DNA of 64,000 nt from a virus, in the IMG/VR virus record IMGVR_UViG_3300022555_001761; one strand, written 5' to 3'. Made by a program: the position numbers and the translations under genes. Position 1 is the stretch's first letter, and the number at the start of each line of letters is the position of its first letter. The notes under the pieces are model-generated. The model ran no database searches, was not told the DNA's origin, and worked only from the letters and a program-made list of their open reading frames with translations. Positions 1 to 52,218 of this stretch are shown here, piece after piece.

Positions 1-295
1 GAACATCTTTTAGATTTCTTTTAAGATAAATAACTTTATATTTATCAAAAACAATATCTAAATATGGTTCCATAAATTCTACTTGATGATGTGATTTACA
101 TACAATATCTTCTATATAAGAATTAACTACAATATCTTTATAAACTTGATGTTCATAATTAGATAAAGTATAAGGTATAGTATTTATTGGAATAAATCCA
201 ATGGTACGAAATTGACCAAAATTGTATTGGTTTATAATGTTGATTAGTAGATGTGTACCTGAGCGTTCGTGAGTGATTACTAATATTGGTTTCAT
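1..295 (-). CDS. sulfotransferase-like P-loop protein, N-terminal part only (gene continues past window start)
   Basis: minus-strand ORF from ATG 295..293 translating MKPILVITHERSGTHLLINIINQYNFGQF...; PILVIxxERSGT resembles the sulfotransferase PAPS-binding P-loop; absent from track because truncated by the window edge. Confidence 0.35.
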   Translation of the reverse strand, partial: MKPILVITHERSGTHLLINIINQYNFGQFRTIGFIPINTIPYTLSNYEHQVYKDIVVNSYIEDIVCKSHHQVEFMEPYLDIVFDKYKVIYLKRNLKDV

Positions 296-328
296 TCTTA
301 ATATATAAAAATGAAAGATGTTTGTTTA

Positions 329-1576
329 TTAAAAATTACAAACTCTAACAGGAGTTAATCTTTGTAATGTAGTATTATCACCCAATTGTCCATAATTATT
401 AACTCCCCAAGTCCAAACATGTCCATTATAATCTATTGCAGATGCATTATAAACACCTGCTGACAAATAACAAAATGTCTTTTTTGCACCTTGTATTGAC
501 ACTGGTGTACAAATTGATGATGTAGAATTATTACCCAAATATCCATTAACATTAGAACCCCAGCCCCATATTTGTCCATTATTATCTAAACCAAGAGTAT
601 AATGAAATTTTCCTGTTGAAATTTGACAAAATGTTTTTTTTGCACCTTTTATTGATACTGGTGTATATCTTGATACCGTTGAGTTGTCTCCCAATTCACC
701 ATATCCATTAAGACCCCAACACCATATTTGTCCATTTTTATCTATTGCCGATACATTATCATTACCCACTGATATTTGACAAAATGTCTTTTTAGCACCT
801 TGAATTGATACTGGCGTACATGTACATATTATTGAATTATTACCTAATTGACCATATTTGTTATATCCCCAACCCCAAGCTTGTCCTTTATAATCTATAC
901 CACTTGAATGATAATGAGTACCAATTGAAATTTGGCAAAATGTTTTTTTGTTACCTTGTATTGATATTGGCGTGCGTTTTGATGTTGTGGAATTATCACC
1001 TAAACAACCAAAATTATTATACCCCCAACCCCATAATATTCCATTTTTATCTATTCCAAATCCCAAATAACTACCTGCTGATATTTGGCAAAATGTTTTT
1101 TTGTTACCTTGTATTGATACAGGTGTACATTTTGATGTTGTGGAATTATTACCTAACATTCCATAATAATTATACCCCCAACCCCATATTTGCCCATTTT
1201 TATCTATTCCAAAAGAATATTGTTCCGAAGAACTTGTGTATACCTTACAAAAAGTTTTTTTAGCACCCTGTATTGATACTGGTATACAAGTTGATACAGT
1301 AGAATTATTACCTAATTGACCTTTTGTATTATACCCCCAAGCCCAAGTTTGTCCACTCTTCAATAATATATTGCCAAATCCAGAACTAATCATCATAGCG
1401 ACCCCCCAAGGTGCTGGTGCTGTATAGACCCAATTACTATAATATCCCATACTTGTGAGCCAAGTTTGAGCAGATAAAGCATTAGGTAAATTGGTATGAA
1501 ATGCTCTATTAACAACAGTTAAAAAAGCAGCATCAGATTTACCAATAGAACGCCAGAAAGAAGGTTGAATTGACAT
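329..1576 (-). CDS. RCC1-repeat (beta-propeller) protein, eukaryote-like
   Basis: 415 aa with about 7 tandem repeats of the pattern GQIWGWGYNxxGxLGxNSTxSxxTPVSIQGxKKTFCQIS, the RCC1 signature WGxNxxGQLG. Confidence 0.8.
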   Translation of the reverse strand: MSIQPSFWRSIGKSDAAFLTVVNRAFHTNLPNALSAQTWLTSMGYYSNWVYTAPAPWGVAMMISSGFGNILLKSGQTWAWGYNTKGQLGNNSTVSTCIPVSIQGAKKTFCKVYTSSSEQYSFGIDKNGQIWGWGYNYYGMLGNNSTTSKCTPVSIQGNKKTFCQISAGSYLGFGIDKNGILWGWGYNNFGCLGDNSTTSKRTPISIQGNKKTFCQISIGTHYHSSGIDYKGQAWGWGYNKYGQLGNNSIICTCTPVSIQGAKKTFCQISVGNDNVSAIDKNGQIWCWGLNGYGELGDNSTVSRYTPVSIKGAKKTFCQISTGKFHYTLGLDNNGQIWGWGSNVNGYLGNNSTSSICTPVSIQGAKKTFCYLSAGVYNASAIDYNGHVWTWGVNNYGQLGDNTTLQRLTPVRVCNF

Positions 1577-1657
1577 TTATAAAAATTTTAGTTTTAATAT
1601 ATATAAAAAATAGAGTGCATATTTTTTTATTTCAGATATTGTTCTTATATTTGTTGT

Positions 1658-1850
1658 GCCGATGTAGCTCAGTTGGAATAAGAGCGCCACCTTCGAAGGT
1701 GGAACATTGAAGTAGATGAATATCAGTTGCAAATGATATAAAATTTATGAATATGTAGAGGTTGAGATCGAAAGTTTGTGTAAGATGCATATAAGCAAAC
1801 ATATAGGTTAATACTGAAGGGTCACAGGTTCGAGTCCTGTCATTGGAGCA
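1658..1850 (+). tRNA. tRNA-like gene, anticodon loop TTCGAAG (anticodon CGA, Ser-type), interrupted by a ~116-nt insertion at the variable-arm position
   Basis: 5' part 1658..1702 has acceptor GCCGATG, D arm GCTC/GAGC and a perfect anticodon arm CCACC-TTCGAAG-GGTGG; 3' part 1819..1850 has variable GGGTC, T arm ACAGG-TTCGAGT-CCTGT and acceptor strand CATTGGA pairing 6/7 with the 5' acceptor; the two halves are separated by 1703..1818. Confidence 0.5.
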
Positions 1851-1851
1851 A

Positions 1852-2466
1852 TTTTAAGTTCTTTGAAAATATTAAAATGTTGTGAATTATAACCAGTAGA
1901 TAAGGGCGCAATCGGACTCTTTAAACATCGTGGGAATGCGTCTCTCCCAATGAGGCTGGAGTAATTCACAGTAAATGGGCTAAACATTGAGCCTTTGTGA
2001 AAAAATTGTGTAGTGAAAACGGAGGGGATGGCAATCCCACAAGATAGGAGTATAAATTTGTCCCTGCTCAGGTCCGCAAGACAATTCTTTGAGTAGAATC
2101 GGCAGAAAACCGAGAACCATGCGCCGTGCCTATCACGCAAAAATTTCACATAAAGATGATAATCCAGTAAATGGATGTTGGATATCAAGACGTCTTGATT
2201 TGAAAAGTAAACGCACCTAACGATTCAGAAATGAACCGAGGACAAAATTCTTAGGTCACCAACGGAGAAATCCTATACGTATCGTTACCATTGAGCAAGG
2301 TAAAACGGAACAGATGCTATGTCTGAAACAAGTACAATAAAAGTACAGTGATTTGATTTATCAAATCTAGGAAAACCGTCCAGACGATACGAATGAGTGC
2401 TCAGCCAAACCCTACTTACTATGTGGGAGTTTTCCGTCAGGGTAATTTCCAATCAGGTTAGAAGAG
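1852..2466. ncRNA. GC-richer noncoding block of about 600 nt with hairpins and GNRA-like loops; candidate structured RNA of unknown class
   Basis: no convincing ORF (track ORF 1808..2188 minus looks spurious); local GC clearly above the surroundings; motifs such as GGGATGGCAATCCC and CAGGTCCGCAAGAC; lies immediately downstream of the tRNA-like gene. Confidence 0.2.
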
Positions 2467-2467
2467 G

Positions 2468-2677
2468 GTGCTAAAATTAAAAATTAAAGAAATGGTAACA
2501 TTATTTTGGATAATTTGGTATATTTTGGGTATATTAGGCGCATTAATTTATAATTCGTTTATGAAATATGAGAACACATTTCTAAAATATATTTGGAATG
2601 CTATTGTAGCATGTAGTGGTGGATTTGGATTTCTTATTTCAATTCTACATTGGATAGGTGTTAAATTTATAAAATAA
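2468..2677 (+). CDS. small membrane protein (2 TM)
   Basis: track ORF 69 aa, hydrophobic helices. Confidence 0.45.
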   Translation: MLKLKIKEMVTLFWIIWYILGILGALIYNSFMKYENTFLKYIWNAIVACSGGFGFLISILHWIGVKFIK

Positions 2678-2800
2678 ATATTTTTTATTATCAAAAAAAA
2701 TGCACTATTATCAGTCAAATGATATCCTAGATATAATACAAAAGAAACAAAAGAAACAAAAGAAAAAAGAAAATCGACATTTTTAGAAAATGGATTTCCT

Positions 2801-3055
2801 ATGAAAAATAAAAAACATAGTGAAGAAACCAAACATAAGATAAGTGAAAGTAAAATTGGTCGCAAAGTATCAGAAGAAACTAAAAAGAAAATGAGTGATA
2901 CGAAACAGAACGTATCAGAAGAAACTAGAAATAAATTAAGAAAAGCGAAAAAAGGAATATCTATGAGAAAAATAAATTGTCCATATTGTAATAAAATTGG
3001 TGGTATATCACAAATGAGGCAATGGCATTTTGAAAATTGTAAAGATAAAAAATAA
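2801..3055 (+). CDS. standalone NUMOD3-repeat plus zinc-finger DNA-binding protein (homing-endonuclease-associated module)
   Basis: repeats HSEETKHKISESKIG / VSEETKKKMSDTK / VSEETRNKLRKAKKG followed by CPYCN...HFENC. Confidence 0.6.
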   Translation: MKNKKHSEETKHKISESKIGRKVSEETKKKMSDTKQNVSEETRNKLRKAKKGISMRKINCPYCNKIGGISQMRQWHFENCKDKK

Positions 3056-3056
3056 T

Positions 3057-3728
3057 ATGAATATCACATTTTTGTCGGATACACACAGCAAACATAAACA
3101 ATTGCTCAATCATCTTCCTGGAGGTGATTTAATTGTCCACGCGGGAGACTTAACCTCAGTTGGTTTCAAACATGAAATTGAAGATTTTTGTAAATGGTTT
3201 GAAAAATTAAAATATTCCAATAAAGTATTTATTGCTGGTAATCATGATCACGGATTTGAAAGAGATCATAATAGTGCATATGAAATTGTTAAAAAATATA
3301 AAATAAACTATCTTCAAGATAGTATGATTGAAATTGATGGAATTAATATATGGGGGTCACCTTGGCAACCAGAATTTTGTAATTGGGCATTCAATTTACC
3401 AAGAAACGGTTGGCAACTTGCAGAAAAATGGAACTATATACCAGAAGATACTGACATTTTAATTACTCACGGTCCACCATTTGGATGTTTAGATATTGTA
3501 AATGGTAGAAAAGAAAATATAGGATGTGAGTTATTAACTGAACGTCTTAAAATAGTTAAACCTAAAATTCATGTTTATGGACATATACATTCTGGATATG
3601 GTTATAAGTTCGATGGTAATACACATTATTTTAATGCTTCTGTATTAAATGAAAAATATGAATATACTAATAAGCCATTGACAATTGATTGGAATAAAGA
3701 AACAAATGAAATAACATTTTTAAAATGA
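3057..3728 (+). CDS. calcineurin-like metallophosphoesterase
   Basis: MNITFLSDTHSKH...GDLIVHAGDL...IAGNHDH...GHIHSGYG metallophosphatase motifs; track start 3030 is a TTG, so the first ATG is at 3057. Confidence 0.75.
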   Translation: MNITFLSDTHSKHKQLLNHLPGGDLIVHAGDLTSVGFKHEIEDFCKWFEKLKYSNKVFIAGNHDHGFERDHNSAYEIVKKYKINYLQDSMIEIDGINIWGSPWQPEFCNWAFNLPRNGWQLAEKWNYIPEDTDILITHGPPFGCLDIVNGRKENIGCELLTERLKIVKPKIHVYGHIHSGYGYKFDGNTHYFNASVLNEKYEYTNKPLTIDWNKETNEITFLK

Positions 3729-3997
3729 ATGAAGAATATAAAAAAGTTTGGAAAGAATATTTGACTGAATATTTAAAAGACTACACAGTAAAAGATAATA
3801 AAAGTATTTATAGTCATTATAATGGTTATAATGATGATTACAAATTAAAGATTGTGGATTACACTCAAATGTTGAAAGAGAAAAAAGAAGATCCTAAAGT
3901 AGCAAATGAAAAAATTTTAGAAAAAATACCTATTGCTGAAATTGAAAAATTCTTACGTAAAAAGAAATTAGAAAATTTAAAAAATAAAGAAGAATGA
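3725..3997 (+). CDS. family-B small protein (C-terminal FLRKKKLENLKNKEE tail)
   Basis: track ORF 90 aa; conserved C-terminal motif; ATGA overlap with the next gene. Confidence 0.55.
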   Translation: MNEEYKKVWKEYLTEYLKDYTVKDNKSIYSHYNGYNDDYKLKIVDYTQMLKEKKEDPKVANEKILEKIPIAEIEKFLRKKKLENLKNKEE

Positions 3998-4212
3998 ATT
4001 ATTCATTAGAAGATATTATGAAAGATATCTCAATTATAAAATATAGAAATCAATTTGAATGTGACTTTAATGACCATGAATATGAATATCAAAGGGAGTA
4101 TCGTAGAATGGAAGTTGAATGGAAAGAAAAATTGGATAATATTGATATTAAGTACATTGAAAAGTATTTGAGAAAAAAGAAATTAGAAAAATTAGAAAAA
4201 ATAAATCAATAA
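3994..4212 (+). CDS. family-B small protein (C-terminal YLRKKKLEKLEKINQ tail)
   Basis: track ORF 72 aa; conserved C-terminal motif. Confidence 0.55.
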   Translation: MNYSLEDIMKDISIIKYRNQFECDFNDHEYEYQREYRRMEVEWKEKLDNIDIKYIEKYLRKKKLEKLEKINQ

Positions 4213-4434
4213 ATGAGCAAAACAACAAAAAATGGAAGTAGTTTATCAGTAACTATATTTCTTATATTTTTAATCTTAAAACTTACTGGTACAATAACTT
4301 GGTCATGGTTGTGGGTGACTAGTCCATTATGGTTAGGCGTTGCACTATTTTTTGTAGGTGCATTTTTAATGTTACTATTTACTACTATAATAGTAGTATT
4401 AGGCACAATATTTGGAAGTAAAAATAATTTTTAA
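4213..4434 (+). CDS. small membrane protein (2 TM)
   Basis: track ORF 73 aa, hydrophobic. Confidence 0.45.
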   Translation: MSKTTKNGSSLSVTIFLIFLILKLTGTITWSWLWVTSPLWLGVALFFVGAFLMLLFTTIIVVLGTIFGSKNNF

Positions 4435-4436
4435 TT

Positions 4437-4694
4437 ATGAAACAAGACGTTTATCCTGAGATTAACCTTTCTCAAAGAATCATTTATGCTCTTAATGAAA
4501 CTTATCAACAAGGTGAAAAAGTTTATTATGATAATGGCTCAATTAGTGGATTTGGCACTGTATGTGGGCAATCATCTAATCCAGTTATATTTGTTGGTGC
4601 AACATATATTATTAGACCTGATGTTCCATTTGATCCTGCTGTGTATAATTTTACACATTTTGCCATACAACAACTTTATATGAAAAAACTTTAA
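4437..4694 (+). CDS. hypothetical protein
   Basis: track ORF 85 aa. Confidence 0.4.
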   Translation: MKQDVYPEINLSQRIIYALNETYQQGEKVYYDNGSISGFGTVCGQSSNPVIFVGATYIIRPDVPFDPAVYNFTHFAIQQLYMKKL

Positions 4695-4724
4695 AATTAA
4701 TTTGTTTATTCAAAAATTTAGTTT

Positions 4725-4735
4725 TACTTTTGTAC
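4725..4735 (+). promoter_or_regulatory. Bacteroidota-type sigma-A -7 box TACTTTTGTAC, with TTTG about 21 nt upstream
   Basis: matches the TAnnTTTG consensus; identical box at 11319; positioned about 22 nt upstream of ORF 4758. Confidence 0.45.
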
Positions 4736-4757
4736 AGTAAACTTAAAACAAACAATT

Positions 4758-4868
4758 ATGAAACGCATTGGTAATAAATTAGTAGTTTTTGACGCAGGAG
4801 AATACACAGTAATTGGTACTTTCAAAAAGGACTCTAATGGACAAGAATACGTAGAGTATTCTATCTAA
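4758..4868 (+). CDS. small ORF (36 aa) MKRIGNKLVVFDAGEYTVIGTFKKDSNGQEYVEYSI
   Basis: ATG shortly after the promoter box and followed by a strong terminator; below the track length cutoff. Confidence 0.35.
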   Translation: MKRIGNKLVVFDAGEYTVIGTFKKDSNGQEYVEYSI

Positions 4869-4901
4869 GATTTTCCGTTGACTTACGAAATCAACACCTC
4901 C

Positions 4902-4942
4902 AGACCCTTTCACAATTTGCAGAGTGAAAGGGTCTTTTCTTG
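4902..4942 (+). terminator. rho-independent terminator
   Basis: AGACCCTTTCAC-aatttgcaga-GTGAAAGGGTCT followed by TTTTCTTG. Confidence 0.7.
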
Positions 4943-5230
4943 TTATAAACTATTATGAATTGTATTTAACATTTCAATAGCGTCTTCAATATTATCAGAT
5001 TGATACAGAATATTTGGTTTATATAAACTATCAGTCATATCATCGTCACCAATTATAAGGGTATTGTTAAAGTAATATCTAATTACGATAGTGTTTATAT
5101 AATCAACTTCAGTATTAATGACTTTGTGTAATTCGATATACTTAAAATTATTACAATTTCTAACTATATTTTTAACAATAATATAATCATCAACTTCATT
5201 GATAACTGTTTGTTCAAATTTATGTTTCAT
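4943..5230 (-). CDS. hypothetical protein
   Basis: track ORF 95 aa. Confidence 0.4.
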   Translation of the reverse strand: MKHKFEQTVINEVDDYIIVKNIVRNCNNFKYIELHKVINTEVDYINTIVIRYYFNNTLIIGDDDMTDSLYKPNILYQSDNIEDAIEMLNTIHNSL

Positions 5231-5478
5231 TAAATTTTTAGTGAATTATATGTTTGAATCTCTTCTATTGTCAATAATCTAATTATTTCATTTTCACTTA
5301 TCCACAAGGATCTAAGACCAATTGTTGAACACAAATATTGATTTGTTACATCTATATCTACTATTTTACAATAATACGACTCAATTGTTGTATAATCTTG
5401 TGGATAATAAATTAAAACATAATCATTTACAACATATAAAAGGCTGGGGTTAAAATAGTCTTCATGAATTTTTTCCAT
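5230..5478 (-). CDS. hypothetical protein
   Basis: track ORF 82 aa. Confidence 0.4.
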   Translation of the reverse strand: MEKIHEDYFNPSLLYVVNDYVLIYYPQDYTTIESYYCKIVDIDVTNQYLCSTIGLRSLWISENEIIRLLTIEEIQTYNSLKI

Positions 5479-5500
5479 ATATTATATATTATTTTTTTAA

Positions 5501-5806
5501 TTGAAGTATTTTTCATATCTTTGTTCCTTATTAAATAAAAAGGCAATGGACAATACAACTAAATGGTATAATTCAAATTATGATTGTTACGGTAATCCAC
5601 TAGGATATATTCAAGATGATATTCAAATAGGGGACACAGTTGAATATGCTTATGCAGATAACCATATGTCTGATGAAAGTGGTAGACCAAAAAGTAAAAG
5701 AGTAACTGTTAAAGTACAAGGTGTATGGGATGGTGAAAAGGCTTGTTTTAATGACAAAAAAAACGTTGTAGTAAGAGCTAAAGCCTGGTTAAAACTTGTT
5801 AAATAA
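5501..5806 (+). CDS. hypothetical protein
   Basis: track ORF 101 aa. Confidence 0.4.
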   Translation: MKYFSYLCSLLNKKAMDNTTKWYNSNYDCYGNPLGYIQDDIQIGDTVEYAYADNHMSDESGRPKSKRVTVKVQGVWDGEKACFNDKKNVVVRAKAWLKLVK

Positions 5807-6255
5807 TGGAAAAGGAAATTAAAAGGCTTGAGGAACAGATTGCTAAATGTGATGTTAAATTATCAAATAGTTCTTTTGTTGATAAAGCACCAAAAGATAT
5901 TATTTTAAAAGAACAACAAAAAAAGAAAGACTTTACAGCACAATTAGAAATTATAAGAAAACAATTAGAAAATTCTAAATCAGTTAGTAAAGATTACTAT
6001 GACGATGAAATTTGTCAATTCACAGTTGGCACAACTGTTTCCTATTTTAAGATACCAAGAACAGAAAGAAAAAAAGAATTTCTAATTTCTAAATTAGATA
6101 GTGTAGAAAAAATAAATTGGCATATTCAATATTTACGTGAACAAAAGACTAATATTGAAATATACAGTGAAGAATGGTATAACTTTATTTATAATGAGGA
6201 AATCACATCTAATGAAATAAATGAATTATTTGAAATTTTTAGGAAATTTGTATGA
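5806..6255 (+). CDS. hypothetical coiled-coil protein
   Basis: track ORF 149 aa. Confidence 0.4.
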   Translation: MEKEIKRLEEQIAKCDVKLSNSSFVDKAPKDIILKEQQKKKDFTAQLEIIRKQLENSKSVSKDYYDDEICQFTVGTTVSYFKIPRTERKKEFLISKLDSVEKINWHIQYLREQKTNIEIYSEEWYNFIYNEEITSNEINELFEIFRKFV

Positions 6256-7054: not shown

Positions 7055-7274
7055 AAAGATTTCAACTGGAGAGATATTTGAATATGAACAATGTGTTTCT
7101 TATCCTGTATTTGATAGAACTCGAAATAACGGCACAATATATTTTGAATTAATTTCAAAAGGTAAGTTTGTTCTGGGTAAGTATATTGGTGAGGACGAAT
7201 TTTATGATGAATATATTGATATTAAAAAAGAAAGAAGACTTAAATTAGAAAAATTAAATCAAATTCTCCAATAA
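7041..7274 (+). CDS. family-B small protein (tail KKERRLKLEKLNQILQ)
   Basis: track ORF 77 aa. Confidence 0.5.
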   Translation: MKTCKKISTGEIFEYEQCVSYPVFDRTRNNGTIYFELISKGKFVLGKYIGEDEFYDEYIDIKKERRLKLEKLNQILQ

Positions 7275-8197
7275 AACCCTTTATATTTAGTATTTTTTGC
7301 TATCGCCTTTCTTAAGTTTTGAATACATATTTCATTATAATTTTTTATTTCCTTAATATTATTCCAAATCCTAACTATACTTCCTTTTTCGTCTATTTGT
7401 TTAATGTTAGTATATTCTCTCGTATTTAAATTTAATTTTTTAATATTATTCTCAATTTCGGCTTTTTCTAAAAAGTTTAATGAATAATAATAATTTTTAG
7501 CATGCCTACATCTATCTTGTAAAACGAAACTTATAGAACGTGGATTAACATTCATTTCTCTTGAGCATTCTTTTATACTGTTAAATTTTTTTATATAATT
7601 TCCAAACATATCATATTGATATATCTCTATGTTTGTACATTTATTTTTATTATCTCTTATTGGTATATTATTTTCTTTTAATATTTTAGTAATAGTTTCT
7701 CTATCAATTTTTAATTCTATTGATATTTTTTTAATTGATAATTTATTAAAATATAATTCTTTAACTACATCAAGATATTTGCTCCTTTTTAATTTGTATG
7801 CTTTTGATACATTATTTCTATGTTCGTTTGTCCATTTCAATTCTAAATTTGTTGCCGCAAATGCTCTAGAATTATATCCATTTTTATAAGAGTTATATTC
7901 ATCAATATAATACTGTTCTCTTTTTATGCAACTATCACGATCACACTCTTCAATTATTTCAAATATTATATTATCAATTCCATACTTATTGACCGCATTT
8001 TGTAAAGAAGGTGAGTTAGATATATTTTTTGATAGTTTTAAAATATGACTGAGCCATCTTTTATGAAACCCATTTTTATTAGAAGTACTACCAATATAAA
8101 CTTTACCATTATTGTTAATAAAACTTATCTTATATACACCAATACTTTTAGGGAATATTTTTTTATCATTTATCGTATATTTCATTTTATATTTCAT
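7259..8197 (-). CDS. GIY-YIG homing endonuclease
   Basis: IGVYKISFINNNGKVYIGSTSN...R...H...EQYYIDEYNSYKNGYNSR GIY-YIG motifs plus C-terminal DNA-binding region. Confidence 0.85.
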   Translation of the reverse strand: MKYKMKYTINDKKIFPKSIGVYKISFINNNGKVYIGSTSNKNGFHKRWLSHILKLSKNISNSPSLQNAVNKYGIDNIIFEIIEECDRDSCIKREQYYIDEYNSYKNGYNSRAFAATNLELKWTNEHRNNVSKAYKLKRSKYLDVVKELYFNKLSIKKISIELKIDRETITKILKENNIPIRDNKNKCTNIEIYQYDMFGNYIKKFNSIKECSREMNVNPRSISFVLQDRCRHAKNYYYSLNFLEKAEIENNIKKLNLNTREYTNIKQIDEKGSIVRIWNNIKEIKNYNEICIQNLRKAIAKNTKYKGFYWRI

Positions 8198-12833: not shown

Positions 12834-14042
12834 CTAAGTAGTTTCCTTACAAAGATTATACTTTATAAGAACTTTAGATAAATCTAAAGGCTCGTTCATA
12901 GAAGCAAAGTGATTTCCGAACCACCTATTCAATATATTTATGGCTGAATTTAAATCACGGTCTATAATTATGGTGTCTGATAACTGAACTTCCCTATTAC
13001 CAAGACTTATTTTATCTTTAAATAGTTTTCCAGTTAGACAGTTAATTTGTGTTGTCCATTTTTCATCAATTTTCACCAAGTTGGTATTTTTTGCTTGACA
13101 CTTATATGTAAGGAATTGTAGAAACATATTGATATTAGATTGACTAAATGACTTTCTAATACCTTTTTTATTCTCATTCACTCCTTCTGTTGACATTAGC
13201 CTCTTAACTGTTAGATCACCAACTACAATTGTATTGTAGTTCATATTCGATAACTTTTTACTCTGAATATGAAGAGTTTGTTTTATTTGTTCGTTCTTTT
13301 TATGATAACATTTATTTAATGTTTTTTTCAATAATAAGTTTCTATTTGATCCTTTTGTTGTTTTACTCCTTTTGTTTTGTATTTTTGCTATTTGTTTCTG
13401 ATAATAATCATTAATTTTTTTAGATTTATTTTTTAATACAATCATACCACCTTTATTATCTATTCCTGTTCCTAATTTACTTAACCCCAAATCAATAGCA
13501 AGAACTTTAGTTTTAACATTAACATCATTAAAATATTCTATTTTATCGTCAATCACCAAATCACACAACCATTTATGTCTAATAAATTTAATTCTTATTT
13601 CTTTTATTTTTAAATCTTTAATATTTAAATTTGATTTATATTCAAATGGAATTTGATTTAGAAAGAACAATCCTTTTTTTATCATCCATCCTGATTGATT
13701 AAAAGAAATAGTATGAAAATAATTATTTTCTATTTTTCTTGGTGGTTTAGCATTTTTATCTTTTTTTATCAAATTAAAAAATGACCTATAAGATCCATAT
13801 AATTCTGTTGCTATTGTTTGAATTGCCTTTGAATTTAATTTCTTCCAATCTGGATATTCTTCTTTTAATAATGGTAATAAATTATTTAACTTGAATTTAT
13901 CTAAAATTATTTTATCTGTTTCATATTTATCTTGTTGTATATCAAGCAATTTATTCCATATATCTTTACGAATATCAGATAATTCTTGTAATTCAAGAAT
14001 TTGTTCTTTTGATGGAAATAATCTTATTTGATACGTCTTCAT
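12834..14042 (-). CDS. tnpB: IS605-family TnpB-like protein with degenerate zinc finger
   Basis: 402 aa; RuvC-III DRDLNSAINI retained, but the CxxC...CxxC zinc finger is replaced by NCLTGK...QLSDT; no tnpA adjacent. Confidence 0.75.
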   Translation of the reverse strand: MKTYQIRLFPSKEQILELQELSDIRKDIWNKLLDIQQDKYETDKIILDKFKLNNLLPLLKEEYPDWKKLNSKAIQTIATELYGSYRSFFNLIKKDKNAKPPRKIENNYFHTISFNQSGWMIKKGLFFLNQIPFEYKSNLNIKDLKIKEIRIKFIRHKWLCDLVIDDKIEYFNDVNVKTKVLAIDLGLSKLGTGIDNKGGMIVLKNKSKKINDYYQKQIAKIQNKRSKTTKGSNRNLLLKKTLNKCYHKKNEQIKQTLHIQSKKLSNMNYNTIVVGDLTVKRLMSTEGVNENKKGIRKSFSQSNINMFLQFLTYKCQAKNTNLVKIDEKWTTQINCLTGKLFKDKISLGNREVQLSDTIIIDRDLNSAINILNRWFGNHFASMNEPLDLSKVLIKYNLCKETT

Positions 14043-30797: not shown

Positions 30798-33209
30798 ATG
30801 GGTTACGAAAACAAAAGAGGGGATTTAATTCTTCCACAAGGCACCTTTGTATATATACAAGACGGTGCTGCAGGTACAGTGCAAGTTGCAGTTGGACCTT
30901 ACAAAGAAAGCATTGGTGAGATTGACAAAATCGTTGTATTTGATGAAAAATCAAGAAAATTCATTCAAGTAAACGAGTTTAACGATGCAATCCAAGTTGC
31001 TAGATCAGCCGATGAAGGTCAATACATTGTGCTGATAAATCCAGCAGAGCCAAAAGACAATGAACAGAAATTCCCACAAAGAGGAAAGAATTCAACAATG
31101 GCAACTCTAAAAACAGGAAGCAAGGTAAATATTCCAGGTCCTGCTACATTTCCACTTTGGCCAGGTCAAATTGGTAAAGTATTAGACGGTCACAATCTTA
31201 AATACAATGAATATCTTATTGTAAGGGTTTACAACGAAGAACAAGCAAAGAAAAACCTTTCTAATGCTATTGTTAAAACTGCCGCATCAGATGATAAATC
31301 TAAATCACTGATCGCAAAAGAAGATTTAGTAACAGGCAAATTACTTGTTATTAAAGGTACAGATGTATCTTTTTACATTCCACCTACTGGTATTGAAGTT
31401 GTTTCTGAAAACGGAAACTATGTTCGTAAATCTGTCACATTAGAGAGATTAGAATATTGTATTCTATTAGATCAAAATGGTGACAAGAGGTACGAAAAAG
31501 GACCAGCAGTTGTTTTCCCTAAACCAACTGAAGAATTCCTTGAACAAGATGGTAAAAAGAAATTCAAAGCACTTGAATTGAATGACAATATGGGTATTTA
31601 CCTTAAAGTCATTGCTGATTATGAAGAAGATGGTCGTCAGTATAAAACTGGTGAAGAACTCTTTCTTACTGGCAAAGAACAAAAAATCTACTTCCCAAGA
31701 GAAGAACACGCTATTATCAAATATGATGATAGGGCTATGCATTATGCAGTTGCGATCACTGGTGGTGAAGCTCGCTATGTCCTTAACAAAGACACAGGTA
31801 GTATTTCATTATTTGTTGGTCCAAAAATGTTCATTCCAGACCCACGAAAAGAAGTAATCGTTAAGAGAATTCTTGATGAAAAAACTATCAAATTGTGGTT
31901 CCCTGATAGTATTGATGCACTTCAGCACAATAAAATATTAGAAGCTGAAATGAGTCAAAATGATTTTTCTGATCTTGGTTACAGAAGTAGTGCATATGTT
32001 GCTGAAAGAGGCGGATTCTCAAAACAAGTAAAAAGCTCATCTTTGAATATGGCAGATGAAATGAGTAGGAAAAACGCATTCACAAAACCAAGAACTTTGA
32101 CAATGGATAACAAGTACGAAGGTGCTGTTACTATCAATGTTTGGCCTGGTTATGCAGTTCAAATAGTTAAGAAAACTGGTGAACGTGAAGTTGTTGTTGG
32201 ACCAAAAGTTAGATTGCTTGAATTTGACGAAACACTTGAAGTTCTTGAACTTTCAACTGGTAAACCAAAAACAGACAATGTTTTAATGAAAACTGTCTAT
32301 CTTCAGACTGAAAACAATGTTGTATCAGACATTATTGATGCTGAAACAAAAGACTTAGTTAATGTTAAAATCCGTTTGTCTTACAGAGTTAACTTCACTG
32401 GAGATAATAAGAAATGGTTCAATGTTTCTAATTATGTGAAATTGATGACTCAACACCTTCGTTCACTTGTTCGTAACAGAGTGAAGAAAATCAACATCGA
32501 AGACTTTAATAGTGATCCTGCTGATATTCTTCGTGATACTGTATTAGGACCAGCAGAAGAAGGCAAGAAAAGGGTAGGTAAAACTTTCTCTGAGAATGGA
32601 ATGCATGTTTATGATATTGAAGTTCTTGATATTATCATTGGTGACAATGAAATCTCATACTTCCTTAAAGATTATCAGAAACATATTGTTAAACAGAATT
32701 TAGAAATGAATAAGCTTCAGAAAGATTTGGATAATACCAAAAAAGAAGAAGATATAACAAGACAAATTCTTGAAGAAAAAGCAAAAACAGAGGATATTCG
32801 TGTTACAATTAACAAATCTAAGATTGAAACTGCAAATTCTATTGAACTGTTGAAAGTAAATGCTGAAAAAGAAAGACAAGTAATTCTTGATGAAATTTCA
32901 AAAATGATTCTTGAAGTTAATAAACTTAAAGATGAACACAAACTTGAAGTTGATAAAGAAAGCTCTGATATTCGTACGGCAGAATATGAAAAACAGATGG
33001 CATCTATTCAGCCTAGATTGATTGAAGCAATGATTACACTTGGTGGTGTTAAAACTACTGAAATCCTTGCCAGAAATCTTAAAGAACAAGGTAATGATTG
33101 GACTAATATGTTCAAAAAAGGCGGAATTGACGGATTATTAGAAACAGTTAAAGGTACTCCTTTATATGATAATTTGATGGCGGTTCTTAATCCTGAAAAA
33201 CCAAAGTAA
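30798..33209 (+). CDS. major vault protein (MVP) homolog
   Basis: 803 aa; N-terminal MVP-repeat region ([80 protein letters not shown]), shoulder region alignable with vertebrate MVP ([26 protein letters not shown] vs [43 protein letters not shown] vs FDDFHKNSARIIRTAV) and a long C-terminal coiled coil (cap-helix equivalent). Confidence 0.8.
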   Translation: [803 protein letters not shown]

Positions 33210-33771: not shown

Positions 33772-34542
33772 ATGGAAAAACGACAAAAAATATGTGGTGT
33801 TTATAAGATAACCAACACATTAACTAAAAAGTATTATATTGGAAGTGCAGTTGATCTAAAAAATAGATTTAAATGTCACAAACAATTATTAAAAAATAAT
33901 AAACATTATAATAGTCACTTACAATCATCATATAATAAATATGGTAAAGAAAATTTTATTTATGAAATCATAGAAACCAATGACAATAAAGAAAATATAA
34001 TAGAAAGAGAACAGTATTGGATTAATTTTTTAGATGCTAATAATACTAAAAAAGGGTATAATAAAAGAATAATTGCCACATCAAATTTAGGAATTAAATC
34101 TTCAGAAAAAACAAAAGAAAAATTAAGACTTTCTCATTTGGGGCATAAACAAAGTGAAGAATCAAAAATAAAAATATCAGAATCACAATATAAAAAAGTT
34201 TGTCAATTTGATAAAAATGGTAATCATATTAATACATTTAATTCTTTTAAAGAAGCTTCTGAAAAAACAAATATTGTAGAACCTGGGATATCAATGGTAA
34301 TAAATAAAAAATTAAAAAGCACAGGTGGTTTTTATTGGTGTTTATTAGAAAATATAAATGAGTTTTCTATTCCAGTTTATAGAATAGATAAAAAACATAA
34401 AAAAATAAAAATAACTTGCTTAGAATCTAATGAAACATTTAATTTTGATTCTATACCAGAAGCAAGTAATAAATTAAACATATCAAAAACATTATTATAC
34501 ACAAAGAATAAAAATAAAAAATATAAATGGGAAAGAATTTAA
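33772..34542 (+). CDS. GIY-YIG homing endonuclease
   Basis: CGVYKITNTLTKKYYIGSAVDLKNRFKCHK ... REQYWINFLD ... GYN plus SEKTKEKLRLSHLG NUMOD-like repeats. Confidence 0.85.
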   Translation: MEKRQKICGVYKITNTLTKKYYIGSAVDLKNRFKCHKQLLKNNKHYNSHLQSSYNKYGKENFIYEIIETNDNKENIIEREQYWINFLDANNTKKGYNKRIIATSNLGIKSSEKTKEKLRLSHLGHKQSEESKIKISESQYKKVCQFDKNGNHINTFNSFKEASEKTNIVEPGISMVINKKLKSTGGFYWCLLENINEFSIPVYRIDKKHKKIKITCLESNETFNFDSIPEASNKLNISKTLLYTKNKNKKYKWERI

Positions 34543-41756: not shown

Positions 41757-42944
41757 TCAGGAAACAAGTTCCTTCTTTTTAAGCGTTTCGTTGCTTGTGC
41801 CAATCGAAATTGGTCTTATTTTTGCTCCACGCTCGTAATCAGACGTTCCATCTGATATATTTTTTCTATATCCTTCATTAAGAATATTTATTGATGCATT
41901 TATATCTCTATCATGTTTTCCACCACATTTAGGACAAATCCAAGTTCTATCATTTAAGGTTAAATTGTTGTTAATCCAACCACATTTAGAACAGGTTTTA
42001 GATGAAGGAAAAAGCCTATCTATATGAATGACTTGTTTATCATTCCAAAGTGCTTTATATTCTAAAACATCTATAAATCTACCCCAACTAACATCTGAAA
42101 TTGCTTTTGATAGTTTATGATTTTTCATCATTCCTTTAATATTTAAGTCTTCCAAATAAATTATATCAAAATCATGAATTAGTTTATTAATTGTTTTATG
42201 AATTAAATCCATTCGTGAGTTAGTTATTTTTTCATGAATTCTAGCAACTTTTAATCTTTGCTTTTCATATCTATTTGATCCTTTTGTTTTCCTTGATAGA
42301 TATTTCTGATTTAAGGATAATTTTTTTTCATAATTATTTAGAAATCTGTGGTTCTTGATTTTCGTTCCATCAGATAACACTAAAAAGTCTTTTATTCCTA
42401 AATCTATTCCTACTGATTGATTTGTTTTTTTATTTGGTTGATATTCTTGCTCTGTTAAAATTGATACAAAATATTTTCCAGTAGGAGTTTTTGATATAAC
42501 ACAATGCCTTATATTGCCTTTAATTTGTCTTTCCATTATCATTTCTATACCATCAAGGAACTTTGGAACAAACAATTTAGTTCCGTTGTATCTTACATTC
42601 TGTGGTATAGTAAATGAATTTTTATTTCTTTTTGATTTGAAATTAGGAAATTTAGTTCTTTTATTAAAAAATCCTTGGTATGCCATATCTAAGCATTTCA
42701 AAGAGTATTGTAATGTTTGTGAGTTTATTTCTTTCAACCAAGTATTAATTTTCTTTATTTGTGTTAATTCTCCTGCTTGATCATAATAATTTACTGATTT
42801 TTTATTATTTAAATATTCCTCTTTACGTTGGTTTAAAAAATAATTATAAGTCCATCTAACAGAGCCAAAGTGTTTATTTAATAACACTTGTTGAATTTCT
42901 GTTGGTTCTAACCTGAATTTATATGTGTATTTAATTATTCTCAT
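41757..42944 (-). CDS. tnpB: IS605/IS1341-family TnpB (intact zinc finger and RuvC motifs), no tnpA
   Basis: 395 aa; GIDLGIKDF (RuvC-I), TSKTCSKCG...ICPKCGGKHDRDINASINI (zinc finger plus RuvC-III). Confidence 0.85.
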   Translation of the reverse strand: MRIIKYTYKFRLEPTEIQQVLLNKHFGSVRWTYNYFLNQRKEEYLNNKKSVNYYDQAGELTQIKKINTWLKEINSQTLQYSLKCLDMAYQGFFNKRTKFPNFKSKRNKNSFTIPQNVRYNGTKLFVPKFLDGIEMIMERQIKGNIRHCVISKTPTGKYFVSILTEQEYQPNKKTNQSVGIDLGIKDFLVLSDGTKIKNHRFLNNYEKKLSLNQKYLSRKTKGSNRYEKQRLKVARIHEKITNSRMDLIHKTINKLIHDFDIIYLEDLNIKGMMKNHKLSKAISDVSWGRFIDVLEYKALWNDKQVIHIDRLFPSSKTCSKCGWINNNLTLNDRTWICPKCGGKHDRDINASINILNEGYRKNISDGTSDYERGAKIRPISIGTSNETLKKKELVS

Positions 42945-49643: not shown

Positions 49644-49895
49644 ATGGATTATAGTAAGATTATAGAAATAATAGAAAAAGATTGTAATCCTCCTTGGACA
49701 CATGGTGCATGGGGAATTGCTGGAGTATATGGCACAGTGTTAAAAACAGAAAAAAAGATAAATGATCACAATTATTATTATGAACTAGTAGCTAGTCAAC
49801 ACGGTGGAACTAGGGTAAAATATATTACTTGCACAGATATAAAATTTATAAGAAAAGAGAAATTAGAAAAAATAAACAATATTACAAATGAATGA
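49644..49895 (+). CDS. family-B small protein (tail FIRKEKLEKINNITNE)
   Basis: track ORF 83 aa. Confidence 0.5.
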   Translation: MDYSKIIEIIEKDCNPPWTHGAWGIAGVYGTVLKTEKKINDHNYYYELVASQHGGTRVKYITCTDIKFIRKEKLEKINNITNE

Positions 49896-52218
49896 TTTTT
49901 TTATACAAGCCCACACAAGTTTTATTGGGCAGACAGGATATAATGCTCATGCAAGAGATTTCTTCACAGCATTAAGTTATAAAAATCCATTAAGAATTAG
50001 AAATTTTACTGTAGGAAAAACTTGGGATGGATTAGGTCCAATGAACTCAAATGGTAGATATAATGATCCTCATGCAAATGAGTCATACATAACTGATTAC
50101 CAGAGAAAACTAATAAATATTCAGACATTATATTGTGGACTAGGTTCTCAAAACAGATATGGAAGTGGACTTTGTGACAGTGATGTTAATAGCGAAACAA
50201 AATATTTAAATGTACCAAAAGTAGATTTGATTTTAAGTGAAACCAATCATCATTATTATCATTGTCTCGAAAAATATACTGGTTTAAAAATTGCATATAA
50301 TGTTTGGGAATCAACAAAATATGAAGATGGATTTTTTGAAATACTTAAAAAGTTTGATCAATTCTGGTGTCCATCAAAATGGCAGAAACAATGTATTGTA
50401 AATCAAGGTTATCCAGAAAATAAAGTTTTTGTTGTACCTGAAGCTGTTGATGGATCTATTTTCAATCCAGACTTCTTCAATTACAATTTAGATATGTATA
50501 AAGATAATAGATTCAAATTTATATTATTTGGAAGATGGGAATATAGAAAAGCAACAACAGAAATTATTGATACTTTTATAAAAACATTTAGAAAAGAAGA
50601 GCCAGTTGATTTAATATTGGCAGTTGACAATTCAGATTATTCTAATGATGGAATGAAAACAACTGAAGAAAGATTAAATCATTATAATTTTAATGATAAT
50701 AGATTGAAAGTCTTGCATTTTGTTGATAGAAAAGATTATGTAAATTATCTTAAAAATGGTCATGTATTTTTATCTTGTGCAAGATCAGAAGGATGGAACT
50801 TACCATTGTGTGTTCCTTCTGGAAAATTAATATTTGGTAATAATAATTTCATTCCAATAGAATCAATAAAAGAAAATGATATAGTTATTAGTCACATTGG
50901 AAGAGAACAGAAAGTATTAAAAAAATTTAAAAATAAATATAATGGCGACATAATAAATATAAATTTGTATAACGATTTTGAAATGTTAAAATTAACACCT
51001 GAGCATCCAGTTTATGGTATTAAAAGAGAATCTTTTATAACAAAAAAAGGTAAATTTAATAATATTCAAAATATTAAGCCAGAATGGATAAAATCAAAAA
51101 ATATTAAAAAAGGTGATATAATACTGAGAACAACATTACCTCAAAAATATTTTAATAATGAAATAATTGATTTATTAACATTAGATAATACATTATTATT
51201 TGATGATGATAAAGTTTGGTATAAAACTGGATTTAATTATAAAAGTGAGCAACTTAAATATAATAGATTTGTTAATTTACATGATTTATCTTTTTTATTC
51301 GGATGGTATATTTCTGAAGGCACAGATGGTATATCAAAATTAATATTTTCATTAAATTATCAGAAAGAAATGCCAATTGCTGAAAAAATTATATTTGAAA
51401 TAAATAAAATATTTGGTGCTATTGGTAATTATGATATTAAAGGAAATAGGTTAATTGTAACTTTTAATTCCACTTTACTATGTAAATTTTTTACATTTTT
51501 TTGTAATAAAATGTCTTACAATAAAATAATACCAGAAAAAATTCTTTTAGGACCATTAAATATTTTAGATGAATTAATTAAAAATATGGTTTTAGGTGAT
51601 GGTTGTTATTCCAATGAAAGATTCAATTATACAACAGTATCATACTTACTAACTAGGCAATTGATGTTCGCAAATCAGCGATTAAACAAAAAAACTTCTT
51701 TACAACTCAATAAAAGAAAAAAAATTGGTAAACGTCCATGTTATACTCTATCATGGAGTATAAATAATGAAAATAATAGGCATAGTAATAAATCTTGGTG
51801 GCATCCAGAAGGATTAGCAATATTAGTTAAGAATTCTATATCAGAAAATTATAATGATTATGTTTACAATTTAGAAGTAGAAAATGATAATTCTTACTTA
51901 TTATCAAATGCAACTGTACACAATTGCGAAGCAATGGCTTGTGGTACGCCATCAATTTATTCTAATTGTAGTGGTCAGTTAGAATTCGCAGAAGGAAAAG
52001 GTCATCCAGTTAAAATAGTAAATGAAAAACCAATTCCAAATGGAGTAGGAAATTATTACGAACCTGATTTTGGTGATTTATCAAAAGTAATGAGAGATGT
52101 TTACACAAATTATTGGAAATATAAGAAAAAGGCATTAGAAGATTCTGAATTACTAATAAATGAATTCTCTTGGGATAATGCAGCTAATAAAGCACTTGCT
52201 ATATTAAAAAATATTTAA
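49888..52218 (+). CDS. GT4-family glycosyltransferase interrupted by an in-frame intein (404 aa after splicing)
   Basis: exteins ...FLSCARSEGWNLPL | intein | CEAMACGTPSIYS... together rebuild the GT4 EX7E motif (EGWNLPLCE) and the EAMAxGxP nucleotide-sugar binding signature. Confidence 0.8.
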   Translation: MNDFFIQAHTSFIGQTGYNAHARDFFTALSYKNPLRIRNFTVGKTWDGLGPMNSNGRYNDPHANESYITDYQRKLINIQTLYCGLGSQNRYGSGLCDSDVNSETKYLNVPKVDLILSETNHHYYHCLEKYTGLKIAYNVWESTKYEDGFFEILKKFDQFWCPSKWQKQCIVNQGYPENKVFVVPEAVDGSIFNPDFFNYNLDMYKDNRFKFILFGRWEYRKATTEIIDTFIKTFRKEEPVDLILAVDNSDYSNDGMKTTEERLNHYNFNDNRLKVLHFVDRKDYVNYLKNGHVFLSCARSEGWNLPLCVPSGKLIFGNNNFIPIESIKENDIVISHIGREQKVLKKFKNKYNGDIININLYNDFEMLKLTPEHPVYGIKRESFITKKGKFNNIQNIKPEWIKSKNIKKGDIILRTTLPQKYFNNEIIDLLTLDNTLLFDDDKVWYKTGFNYKSEQLKYNRFVNLHDLSFLFGWYISEGTDGISKLIFSLNYQKEMPIAEKIIFEINKIFGAIGNYDIKGNRLIVTFNSTLLCKFFTFFCNKMSYNKIIPEKILLGPLNILDELIKNMVLGDGCYSNERFNYTTVSYLLTRQLMFANQRLNKKTSLQLNKRKKIGKRPCYTLSWSINNENNRHSNKSWWHPEGLAILVKNSISENYNDYVYNLEVENDNSYLLSNATVHNCEAMACGTPSIYSNCSGQLEFAEGKGHPVKIVNEKPIPNGVGNYYEPDFGDLSKVMRDVYTNYWKYKKKALEDSELLINEFSWDNAANKALAILKNI
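50809..51924 (+). mobile_element. intein (372 aa) with LAGLIDADG homing endonuclease
   Basis: begins CVPSGKLIFGNNNFIPIESI (block A, Cys1); ends VYNLEVENDNSYLLSNATVHN followed by extein Cys+1 (blocks F/G); internal LSFLFGWYISEGTDG and ELIKNMVLGDGCYS LAGLIDADG motifs. Confidence 0.8.

Follow-up and report, generated by a model that had tools for sequence, protein, structure and literature searches.

Phage tRNA genes are usually read as helpers of codon usage or as shields against tRNA-cutting defences, and the class II tRNAs illustrate that an extra arm at the variable position is compatible with translation. In phage genomes, the large RNAs GOLLD and ROOL adjoin tRNA islands (PMC12286853, PMC5737381), and GOLLD can have covalently linked tRNAs (PMC12286853). 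Here we describe a locus in a 64,000-nucleotide (nt) stretch of viral DNA (IMG/VR virus record IMGVR_UViG_3300022555_001761; the whole stretch is called the window below) in which a tRNA-type cloverleaf at positions 1658-1848 of the plus strand is interrupted by a conserved 116-nt insert between tRNA positions 44 and 45, in the variable region. The reading that we favor, and hold with about as much doubt as conviction, is that of a phage gene that descends from tRNA-Ile(GAU) and now specifies a tRNA-scaffolded non-coding RNA with the insert retained. On this reading a tRNA gene has been turned into the carrier of a conserved 116-nt RNA domain, and selection on the tRNA shape has outlasted decoding. 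We know of no natural insert of such size at the variable-loop position.

The split cloverleaf can be read directly from the letters of the window copy, with all of its parts on the plus strand. The 5′ body (1658..1703) begins with the acceptor 5′ strand GCCGATG (1658-1664), which U8 and A9 (TA) link to the D arm GCTC-AGTTGGAATAA-GAGC (1667-1685). G15 is present for the Levitt pair, and the D loop keeps the G18 G19 pair. G26 follows at 1686, between the D arm and an anticodon-type hairpin (CCACC-TTCGAA-GGTGG, 1687-1702), and A44 at 1703 is the last residue before the insert. The 3′ body (1820..1848) resumes with GGTC (1820-1823), corresponding to G45, G46, U47, and C48, and continues with a canonical T arm (ACAGG-TTCGAGT-CCTGT, 1824-1840), the acceptor 3′ strand CATTGGA (1841-1847), and a discriminator G (1848), after which the window copy encodes no CCA. 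The original prediction had placed the insertion at 1703..1818 and had described a canonical T arm and an acceptor 3′ strand that pairs with the 5′ acceptor. The length of 116 nt and the T arm stand, while the boundaries of the insert move to 1704-1819 and the acceptor stem forms six of its seven pairs, with G1 opposite A72 as a mismatch and G4-U69 as a wobble. The window copy thus possesses an acceptor stem, a 4-base-pair (bp) D stem, and a T stem of 5 bp that closes a GTTCRANNC-type T-loop. Its anticodon loop, at 6 nt, is not the canonical 7-nt loop with U33 and an anticodon of 3 nt, and the 116 nt between A44 and G45 correspond neither to a class I variable region (4 to 5 nt) nor to a class II one (up to about 25 nt).

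The anticodon-type hairpin is, as first described, a perfect palindrome of 16 nt (CCACCTTCGAAGGTGG, 1687-1702). Its stem of 5 bp closes a 6-nt loop, TTCGAA (1692..1697), so there is neither the 7-nt loop TTCGAAG nor the CGA anticodon that had been read there, and the vestigial loop is non-decoding. The palindrome also has an alternative fold of 6 bp with a UCGA tetraloop. The codon usage of the genome argues against a Ser(CGA) reading as well, since TCG is nearly absent (5 of 5,636 sampled codons) and AUU and AUC together account for about 4.9% of the sampled codons.

Six further distinct variants of the element were recovered via neighboring proteins or exact-motif scans, in syntenic metagenomic phage contigs. 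The resulting set of seven comprises the window copy, L056 (from NCBI assembly GCA_964520455.1), L057, one sequence shared by L060, L061, L065, and L067, and L068, L073, and L074. Identical copies of the element are found in several ENA assemblies. Searches elsewhere gave no match, neither for the exact junction pattern among 185,579 bacterial and archaeal species genomes (GTDB), nor by blastn of positions 1500-2600 against cultured phages, nor in the first motif scans of IMG/VR and JGI. Contigs L062-L064, L066, and L069-L071 proved to be chance pattern matches, and the neighboring RCC1 gene was a poor bait for relatives, being a member of a repeat family. A covariance model of the element, run over 0.73 megabases (Mb) of related sequence, found a single copy in each genome segment and none that had diverged, and a profile of the insert alone found no insert outside this tRNA context in the window and the related sequence.

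The anticodon hairpins of these variants identify the parent tRNA. In L073 and L074 the hairpin reads CCACC-CTGATAA-GGTGG, a canonical 7-nt loop with C32 and U33, the anticodon GAU, and A37 and A38; L074 also has a G1-C72 pair. The other five variants, the window copy included, have 6-nt loops (TTCGAA, CACGAA, TTCGAA, ATTTAA, and ATCGAA). The family has therefore descended from a tRNA-Ile(GAU) that already bore the insert or gained it early, and most lineages, including that of the window, are now unable to decode. This replaces the former designation tRNA(CGA), as the canonical-loop relatives carry GAT, for isoleucine, and no segment of the element is less conserved than the anticodon loop (50% mean identity). 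Position 72 is A, U, or C among the variants, and the discriminator base is G, A, or U. Among the tRNAs of the retrieved related loci there is no insertion-free close homolog, so the isoleucine assignment is carried by the anticodon only; cultured phages and Escherichia coli show generic tRNA similarity, about 80% or less among the matches listed. The insert sequence groups the window with L073 and L074, but the window loop resembles that of the other clade. Two histories would account for this mixed affinity, repeated loss of the canonical loop or a shuffling of the 5′ half by recombination between phages.

Standard tools pass over the gene as it stands. ARAGORN at default settings reports no tRNA in the entire 64 kb, and the window copy has no Rfam match at gathering score, its 5′ part and T arm reaching 16.9 and 13.2 bits, respectively, with the tRNA model RF00005 (gathering cutoff, 29). 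After in silico deletion of 1704-1819, ARAGORN in default mode calls a tRNA with a 2-nt anticodon in the window. The same deletion yields a tRNA call in each of the seven variants, with L073 and L074 called as tRNA-Ile(gat). Two intact homologs pass the RF00005 cutoff (L074, 43.6 bits; L057, 36.4 bits), and L073 reaches 26.4 bits. The Rfam tRNA alignment of L074 places the entire insert between model positions 44 and 45, in the variable region, which agrees with the original prediction that the cloverleaf is interrupted at the variable-arm position and not at the 37/38 intron site. The minimum-free-energy fold of the full 193 nt retains the cloverleaf. The intron mode of ARAGORN forces an alternative parse, in which a 105-nt "intron" splits the anticodon of a tRNA-Ile(gat) whose variable arm has 15 nt; this parse was rejected because it breaks the perfect CCACC/GGTGG hairpin and finds no support in the alignment. 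A fusion of two neighboring tRNAs, or a foreign 5′ half, was likewise discarded, as the acceptor strands pair and change compatibly in all seven variants; the covariance model does bridge adjacent tRNAs within the tRNA array of contig L013. Genes of this kind escape standard tRNA finders and Rfam.

The insert (1704..1819) is 116 to 117 nt long in every variant and folds into three hairpins. The first (H1, 1704..1756), identified from the RNAalifold consensus and pair counts, is built of a basal helix ACAU/AUGU, a helix GUAGAU/AUUUAU, and an apical stem (1720-1725/1734-1739), and it includes a symmetric internal loop, UGAA/GAAU, that is invariant across variants. Its apical hairpin, ATATCA-GTTGCAAA-TGATAT (1720-1739), is the internal hairpin already noticed in the single sequence, and the closing pair of its stem covaries (A-U three times, C-G twice, and U-G once). 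The H1 loop holds the invariant palindromic hexamer UUGCAA (1727-1732). The second hairpin (H2, GGU-UGAG-AUC, 1760..1769) is more weakly supported, by three pairs that are compatible in seven variants through one-sided changes. In the third (H3, GUUUGU/GCAAAC, 1774..1800) the two outer pairs change on both sides, one between G-C and C-G and the other among A-U, U-A, and U-G. The block GATGCATA of H3 is invariant in all seven variants, and its large loop holds a second invariant palindrome, AUGCAU (1785-1790). Both palindromic loops share UGCA and could pair with each other or between molecules, as far as their sequence suggests.

Several other readings of the same letters were tried and dropped. 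A C/D box or K-turn within the insert, prompted by a weak SNORD24 match (17 bits), was rejected since the variants do not share the putative C box, and a micro-open reading frame (ATGAATATCAGTTGCAAATGA) lacks its start codon in the other variants. The minus-strand open reading frames (ORFs) at 1577-1732, 1632-1802, and 1808-2188 were rejected on account of indels that are not multiples of three and of changes that compensate pairs. Gene callers predict nothing over the element region in any contig.

Conservation and covariation indicate that the whole element is maintained. In pairwise comparisons of the first five variants, the element is 78 to 90% identical; in the alignment of these five, the mean pairwise identity of the insert (85%) is comparable to that of the two parts of the tRNA body (86% and 78%), and 82 of 117 insert columns are invariant. 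Within the insert, the hairpin loops vary less than the stems do. Between the window and the L060/L061 lineage the element is 82% identical, compared with 60% (nt; 45% in amino acids [aa]) for the neighboring phosphoesterase gene and 71% (nt) for a small membrane-protein gene. Between the window and L056, the element is 87% identical and the RCC1 gene 70% (nt; 57% in aa). Judged by these identities, purifying selection on the element is stronger than on most of its neighbors. In the seven-sequence alignment, the cloverleaf and the three insert hairpins have 96.9% paired cells versus 28 to 44% with slid partners, and seven pairs are changed on both sides versus zero to one in the slid controls; the covariation score exceeds all 500 shuffles. 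The D stem and the acceptor are invariant or wobble-compatible in the seven variants. In the T stem, three of five pairs have changed in a compensatory manner (ACAGG/CCTGT, ATAGG/CCTAT, GTAGG/CCTAC, and GTGGG/CCCAT), covariation is also seen at the last pair of the vestigial anticodon stem (C-G and U-A), and the anticodon stem of L057 is shorter by one cleanly lost base pair. All derived T stems (L057, L061, and L068) belong to variants with 6-nt loops, which argues that the tRNA fold was selected after decoding had been lost. Three options had been offered for the insert when it was first seen, a giant variable arm, a novel intron or ribozyme, and the scar of a small mobile element. A constant length, conservation at the level of the body, and compensatory support for its helices make the giant variable arm the best fitting of the three.

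The surroundings of the gene are conserved as well. A promoter-like −7 box, TATATTTG (1646..1653, plus strand), lies 4 nt upstream of G1 and fits the −7 consensus of Bacteroidota sigma-A, TAnnTTTG (PMC7366714). The box TA(TA/TC)TTTG is present in all six variants with upstream sequence (the window, L056, L057, L061, L068, and L073), varies only at "nn" (TATATTTG or TATCTTTG), and stands 4 nt before G1 except in L057, where the distance is 10 nt. From its sequence, this box would imply transcription by a Bacteroidota host polymerase and a transcript that begins at the mature 5′ end or only a few nt from it. The window has a G+C content of 23 to 33% and encodes an RCC1-repeat protein. Farther downstream, a calcineurin-like metallophosphoesterase gene (3057-3728, plus strand) is most closely related, among cultured phages, to genes of Flavobacterium phages in the genus Immutovirus (57% aa identity), in which a tRNA cluster adjoins the phosphoesterase genes. 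Many phosphoesterase relatives in IMG/VR also adjoin tRNA genes; contig L013 has 20 tRNAs directly upstream, and orthologs lie by tRNA clusters in L013, L022-L025, L027, L029, L032, L040, and Immutovirus. The window is therefore from a large tailed phage of Bacteroidota, and the element sits where its relatives keep a tRNA island. As a separate observation, the phosphoesterase itself may be a tRNA end-healing or repair enzyme.

Based on these results, we propose the following model. Transcription would start from the gene's own Bacteroidota-type promoter a few nt upstream of G1. The acceptor/T-arm minihelix and the D/T elbow would then permit trimming and stabilization by host tRNA enzymes, the candidates being RNase P (if a leader is present), the 3′ tRNase, and the CCA-adding enzyme. 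The three-hairpin 116-nt domain would be retained in the mature RNA and would project from position 44/45 like the variable arm of a class II tRNA. Since canonical A44 and G45-G46-U47-C48 flank the insert, the core can fold with this domain looped out. The insert would be the working part of the RNA, in a binding or assembly role, its invariant UGAA/GAAU internal loop and palindromic loops UUGCAA and AUGCAU binding a protein or forming an intra- or intermolecular loop-loop contact. An insert that is as conserved as the body, with loops conserved above stems, is what would be expected of a functional domain and not of a spacer removed by proteins. In the lineage of the window, the shrinkage of the anticodon loop to 6 nt would leave the copy non-decoding.

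Several points weigh against this interpretation. Its support is comparative only and comes from seven sequences, and the retention of the insert is our inference from such sequences. The fold energy is no better than that of shuffled controls (z = −1.24 for the element and −0.67 for the insert alone), and there is no helix at the base of the insert that would close it and bring positions 44 and 45 together. The idea of kissing loops or of a dimer derives from invariant sequence, which cannot show covariation. In addition, the perfect tRNA-Ile loops of L073 and L074 are what would be expected if a working tRNA were still made, which would be easier to picture after excision.

Excision is the most serious rival, and we consider it unlikely. 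The insert would be an intervening sequence that is cut out, with the halves rejoined by self-processing or by phage or host enzymes to give a tRNA of about 75 nt; L073 and L074 would yield a working tRNA-Ile(GAU), and the window would yield a non-decoding relic. The predicted junction is ...AAGGTGGA|GGTCACAGG... (or AAGGTGGA|GGTCACAGGTTCGAG). Removal of exactly 1704-1819 does restore a textbook 5-nt variable loop, A-GGUC, with the ARAGORN calls in seven of seven variants, two of them as Ile(gat). Conservation as strong as that of the insert would be in keeping with a catalytic RNA, and a tRNA-Ile would be useful to a phage with the AUU and AUC usage given above. The known routes of removal do not fit, however. 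The host is bacterial, and the only bacterial or phage tRNA introns known to us are group I or group II introns located in the anticodon loop. At E ≤ 10, none of the intron and ribozyme families of Rfam matches positions 1-6000 or 1640-1870, a check called for by the original prediction. The group I features amount to a terminal G, which is trivial; the 5′ exon ends in A and not U, no group I model matches at E ≤ 10, and the smallest group I introns known to us are about twice as long as 116 nt. The group II signatures, a 5′ GUGYG, a 3′ AY, and domain V, are absent from 1704-1819, there is no group II match in Rfam, and an insert of 116 nt is too short for a group II intron as well. Small self-cleaving ribozymes (hammerhead, twister, pistol, hatchet, hepatitis delta virus [HDV]-like, and others) gave no match at E ≤ 10. 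RNAduplex pairing of the junction neighborhoods is weak and mutually inconsistent in five variants, so that no consistent bulge-helix-bulge emerges. Five of the seven variants would still produce a 6-nt loop after excision, yet both "exons" and "intron" are under selection, with compensatory changes in the T stem. No positive sign of an intron or ribozyme emerged, and one of a novel kind, as had been suggested, would fall outside the known families.

In one form of this rival, which we regard as rather improbable, the tRNA-Ile of a bacterial virus carries a new kind of 44/45 intervening sequence that is removed by neither the group I, the group II, nor the bulge-helix-bulge route. The insert would then have to be a self-processing RNA of very small size or the substrate of a cutting and rejoining pathway specific to the phage, and the excised conserved piece might itself be the selected product. 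If the insert were indeed excised, it would represent a new class of bacterial tRNA intron.

The region immediately downstream bears on a further alternative. An ORF-free structured RNA of about 600 nt (element C, 1881..2477, plus strand) follows the tRNA-like gene as a separate element and was aligned with its counterparts in L056 (about 7232-7700, minus strand) and L057 (1157-1925); shorter forms occur in L073 (about 314-680) and at the end of L068. Element C contains invariant runs of up to about 50 nt between lineages whose neighboring proteins are 54 to 81% identical. Its length differences consist of whole hairpins, with the window carrying about 145 nt more near 2005-2150 than L056, and it forms long-range helices (e.g., 1954-1968 with 2391-2406) and shows one compensatory pair in CGTATCGTT/GACGATACG. 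No Rfam model, those of ROOL and GOLLD included, matches element C at E ≤ 10, and it contains no conserved TGCA with which the insert loops could pair. It is absent from L061 and L074, both of which keep the tRNA-like gene. We also observed another RNA of about 115 nt, element B, which is closed by a 10-bp stem (GTAATCAATT/AATTGATTAC) and is found in L057 (about 1040-1156), L061 (about 945-1063), and L060, L065, and L067; it has no Rfam match and is absent from the window. The RNA cluster is followed, in all six variants with downstream sequence, by a gene for a membrane protein of about 60 aa (2492-2677, plus strand, 61 aa with two predicted membrane helices in the window), which has only four homolog clusters among 5.8 billion proteins, all from these phages. 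The interval between the tRNA-like gene and this small-protein gene holds nothing in L074, element B in L061, element C in the window and L056, both in L057, and a shortened C in L073 and L068. Within this RNA cluster, the tRNA-like gene is the one constant member.

Such an arrangement could mean that the tRNA fold is a handle for processing or stability and nothing else ("tRNA punctuation"), in which cuts by RNase P and the 3′ tRNase release the downstream RNAs or an mRNA that encodes the small membrane protein and the tRNA-like piece has no further role. The element is always the first after the promoter and is always followed by elements B and/or C and/or the 60-aa membrane-protein gene, and GOLLD and ROOL likewise adjoin tRNA islands (PMC12286853, PMC5737381). 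A plain tRNA would suffice for this purpose, and the proposal leaves without reason both a fixed-length 116-nt domain with invariant loops in every variant and the constancy of the element next to downstream RNAs that come and go. We give it little credence.

Very improbable, in our view, is a full-length RNA that is aminoacylated with its giant arm and used on the ribosome. Such a role could apply at most to the relatives with canonical loops, since L073 and L074 keep C32, U33, G34, A35, U36, A37, and A38, L074 keeps G1-C72, and the class II arms offer a precedent at the same position. It cannot apply to the window, with its 6-nt loop and G1-A72 mismatch. The discriminator differs among the variants (G, A, and U), and natural variable arms are known to us only up to about 20 to 25 nt. 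Finally, a decaying tRNA pseudogene, broken by a chance insertion or bearing the scar of a mobile element, would explain the silence of standard finders, the degenerate anticodon loop, and the mismatched first acceptor pair, but is in our judgment refuted by the comparative data: identity of 78 to 90% is kept while neighboring genes fall to 60% (nt) in the farthest lineage, seven pairs are compensatory, the insert length is constant, the promoter box is conserved, and the insert, itself under purifying selection, occurs once per genome and only in this tRNA context, neither the window nor about 0.7 Mb of related sequence containing any further copy.

Other features of the window were recorded in passing. 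The motif TATATATAAAAAWWA occurs at 1598-1612 and at ten other intergenic sites (e.g., 8382, 14071, 29770, and 42974), an enrichment of 11 matches versus 2.6 expected. Related contigs also carry it upstream of genes, and it is a candidate promoter or regulatory box of the phage. Two genes for GIY-YIG/NUMOD homing endonucleases are located at 7259-8197 (minus strand) and 33772-34542 (plus strand); in phage T4, homing endonuclease genes of such a type (segB) lie in the tRNA region. Two TnpB/OrfB_IS605-type genes (12834-14042 and 41757-42944, both on the minus strand) encode helix-turn-helix, OrfB_IS605, and Cas12f1-like TNB domains. A group 1 glycosyltransferase gene (49888-52218, plus strand) is apparently interrupted by an intein, with an Intein_splicing match at residues 340-679 that is below the Pfam cutoff. 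Two plus-strand genes represent unusual phage cargo, one (30798-33209) encoding a protein with major-vault-protein shoulder and repeat domains and the other (52660-55926) a 1,088-aa SusC/TonB-dependent-receptor-like beta-barrel with a CarboxypepD_reg domain.

The seven variants form a natural series, two with a perfect tRNA-Ile anticodon loop and five without. Such a series makes it possible to test what size of variable domain is tolerated by processing enzymes, synthetases, and ribosomes and whether the tRNA body has a non-translational role in phages. The locus also points to an unclassified large structured RNA in the niche of GOLLD and ROOL.

Comparison with known systems places the tRNA-like gene near several of them. 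Group I introns (in tRNA-Leu UAA, tRNA-fMet, and Azoarcus tRNA-Ile CAU) resemble it as intervening sequences with conserved RNA structure in bacterial and phage tRNA genes, but they reside in the anticodon loop, measure about 200 nt or more, and match the Intron_gpI model, whereas the insert lies at 44/45, has 116 nt, and has no match. Non-canonical archaeal tRNA introns share an intervening sequence away from 37/38. They require a bulge-helix-bulge and the splicing endonuclease and are usually poorly conserved, unlike the conserved insert in a phage of a bacterial host. GOLLD and ROOL are alike in their position in phage tRNA islands, with a large ornate RNA (here element C) directly 3′ of a tRNA-type gene; the tRNA-like gene itself has no match to their models at E ≤ 10 and occurs without the large RNA in L061 and L074.

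The class II tRNAs (Leu, Ser, bacterial Tyr, and Sec) also carry a structured extra in the variable region and otherwise keep the L-shape. Theirs is a single hairpin of up to about 20 to 25 nt with a closing helix, in contrast to an insert about five-fold larger with three hairpins and no such helix. The D arm of the element is of the class I type, the parent anticodon belongs to a class I tRNA (Ile), and the window copy is non-decoding. Closest in presumed action are transfer-messenger RNA (tmRNA), YrlA, the MHV68 TMER, and the MALAT1 mascRNA, which keep the acceptor, T arm, and elbow, have lost anticodon function, and serve processing, stability, or protein binding. The element would work most like these modules and is a member of none, as it combines a full cloverleaf with a variable-loop domain and has no sequence or model match to them. 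The YrlA model (RF02553; cutoff, 69) reached 15.8 bits in the window and 18.1 bits in L074, in the T-arm region only. ARAGORN found no tmRNA even at a relaxed threshold, and the acceptor has C3-G70 and not G3-U70. An engineered counterpart is the "tRNA scaffold" reportedly devised by Ponchon and Dardel for recombinant RNA expression, in which a foreign structured RNA is likewise set on a tRNA body and processed and protected by the cell as a tRNA. That construct is artificial and replaces the anticodon arm, whereas the element described here is natural and bears its graft in the variable loop.

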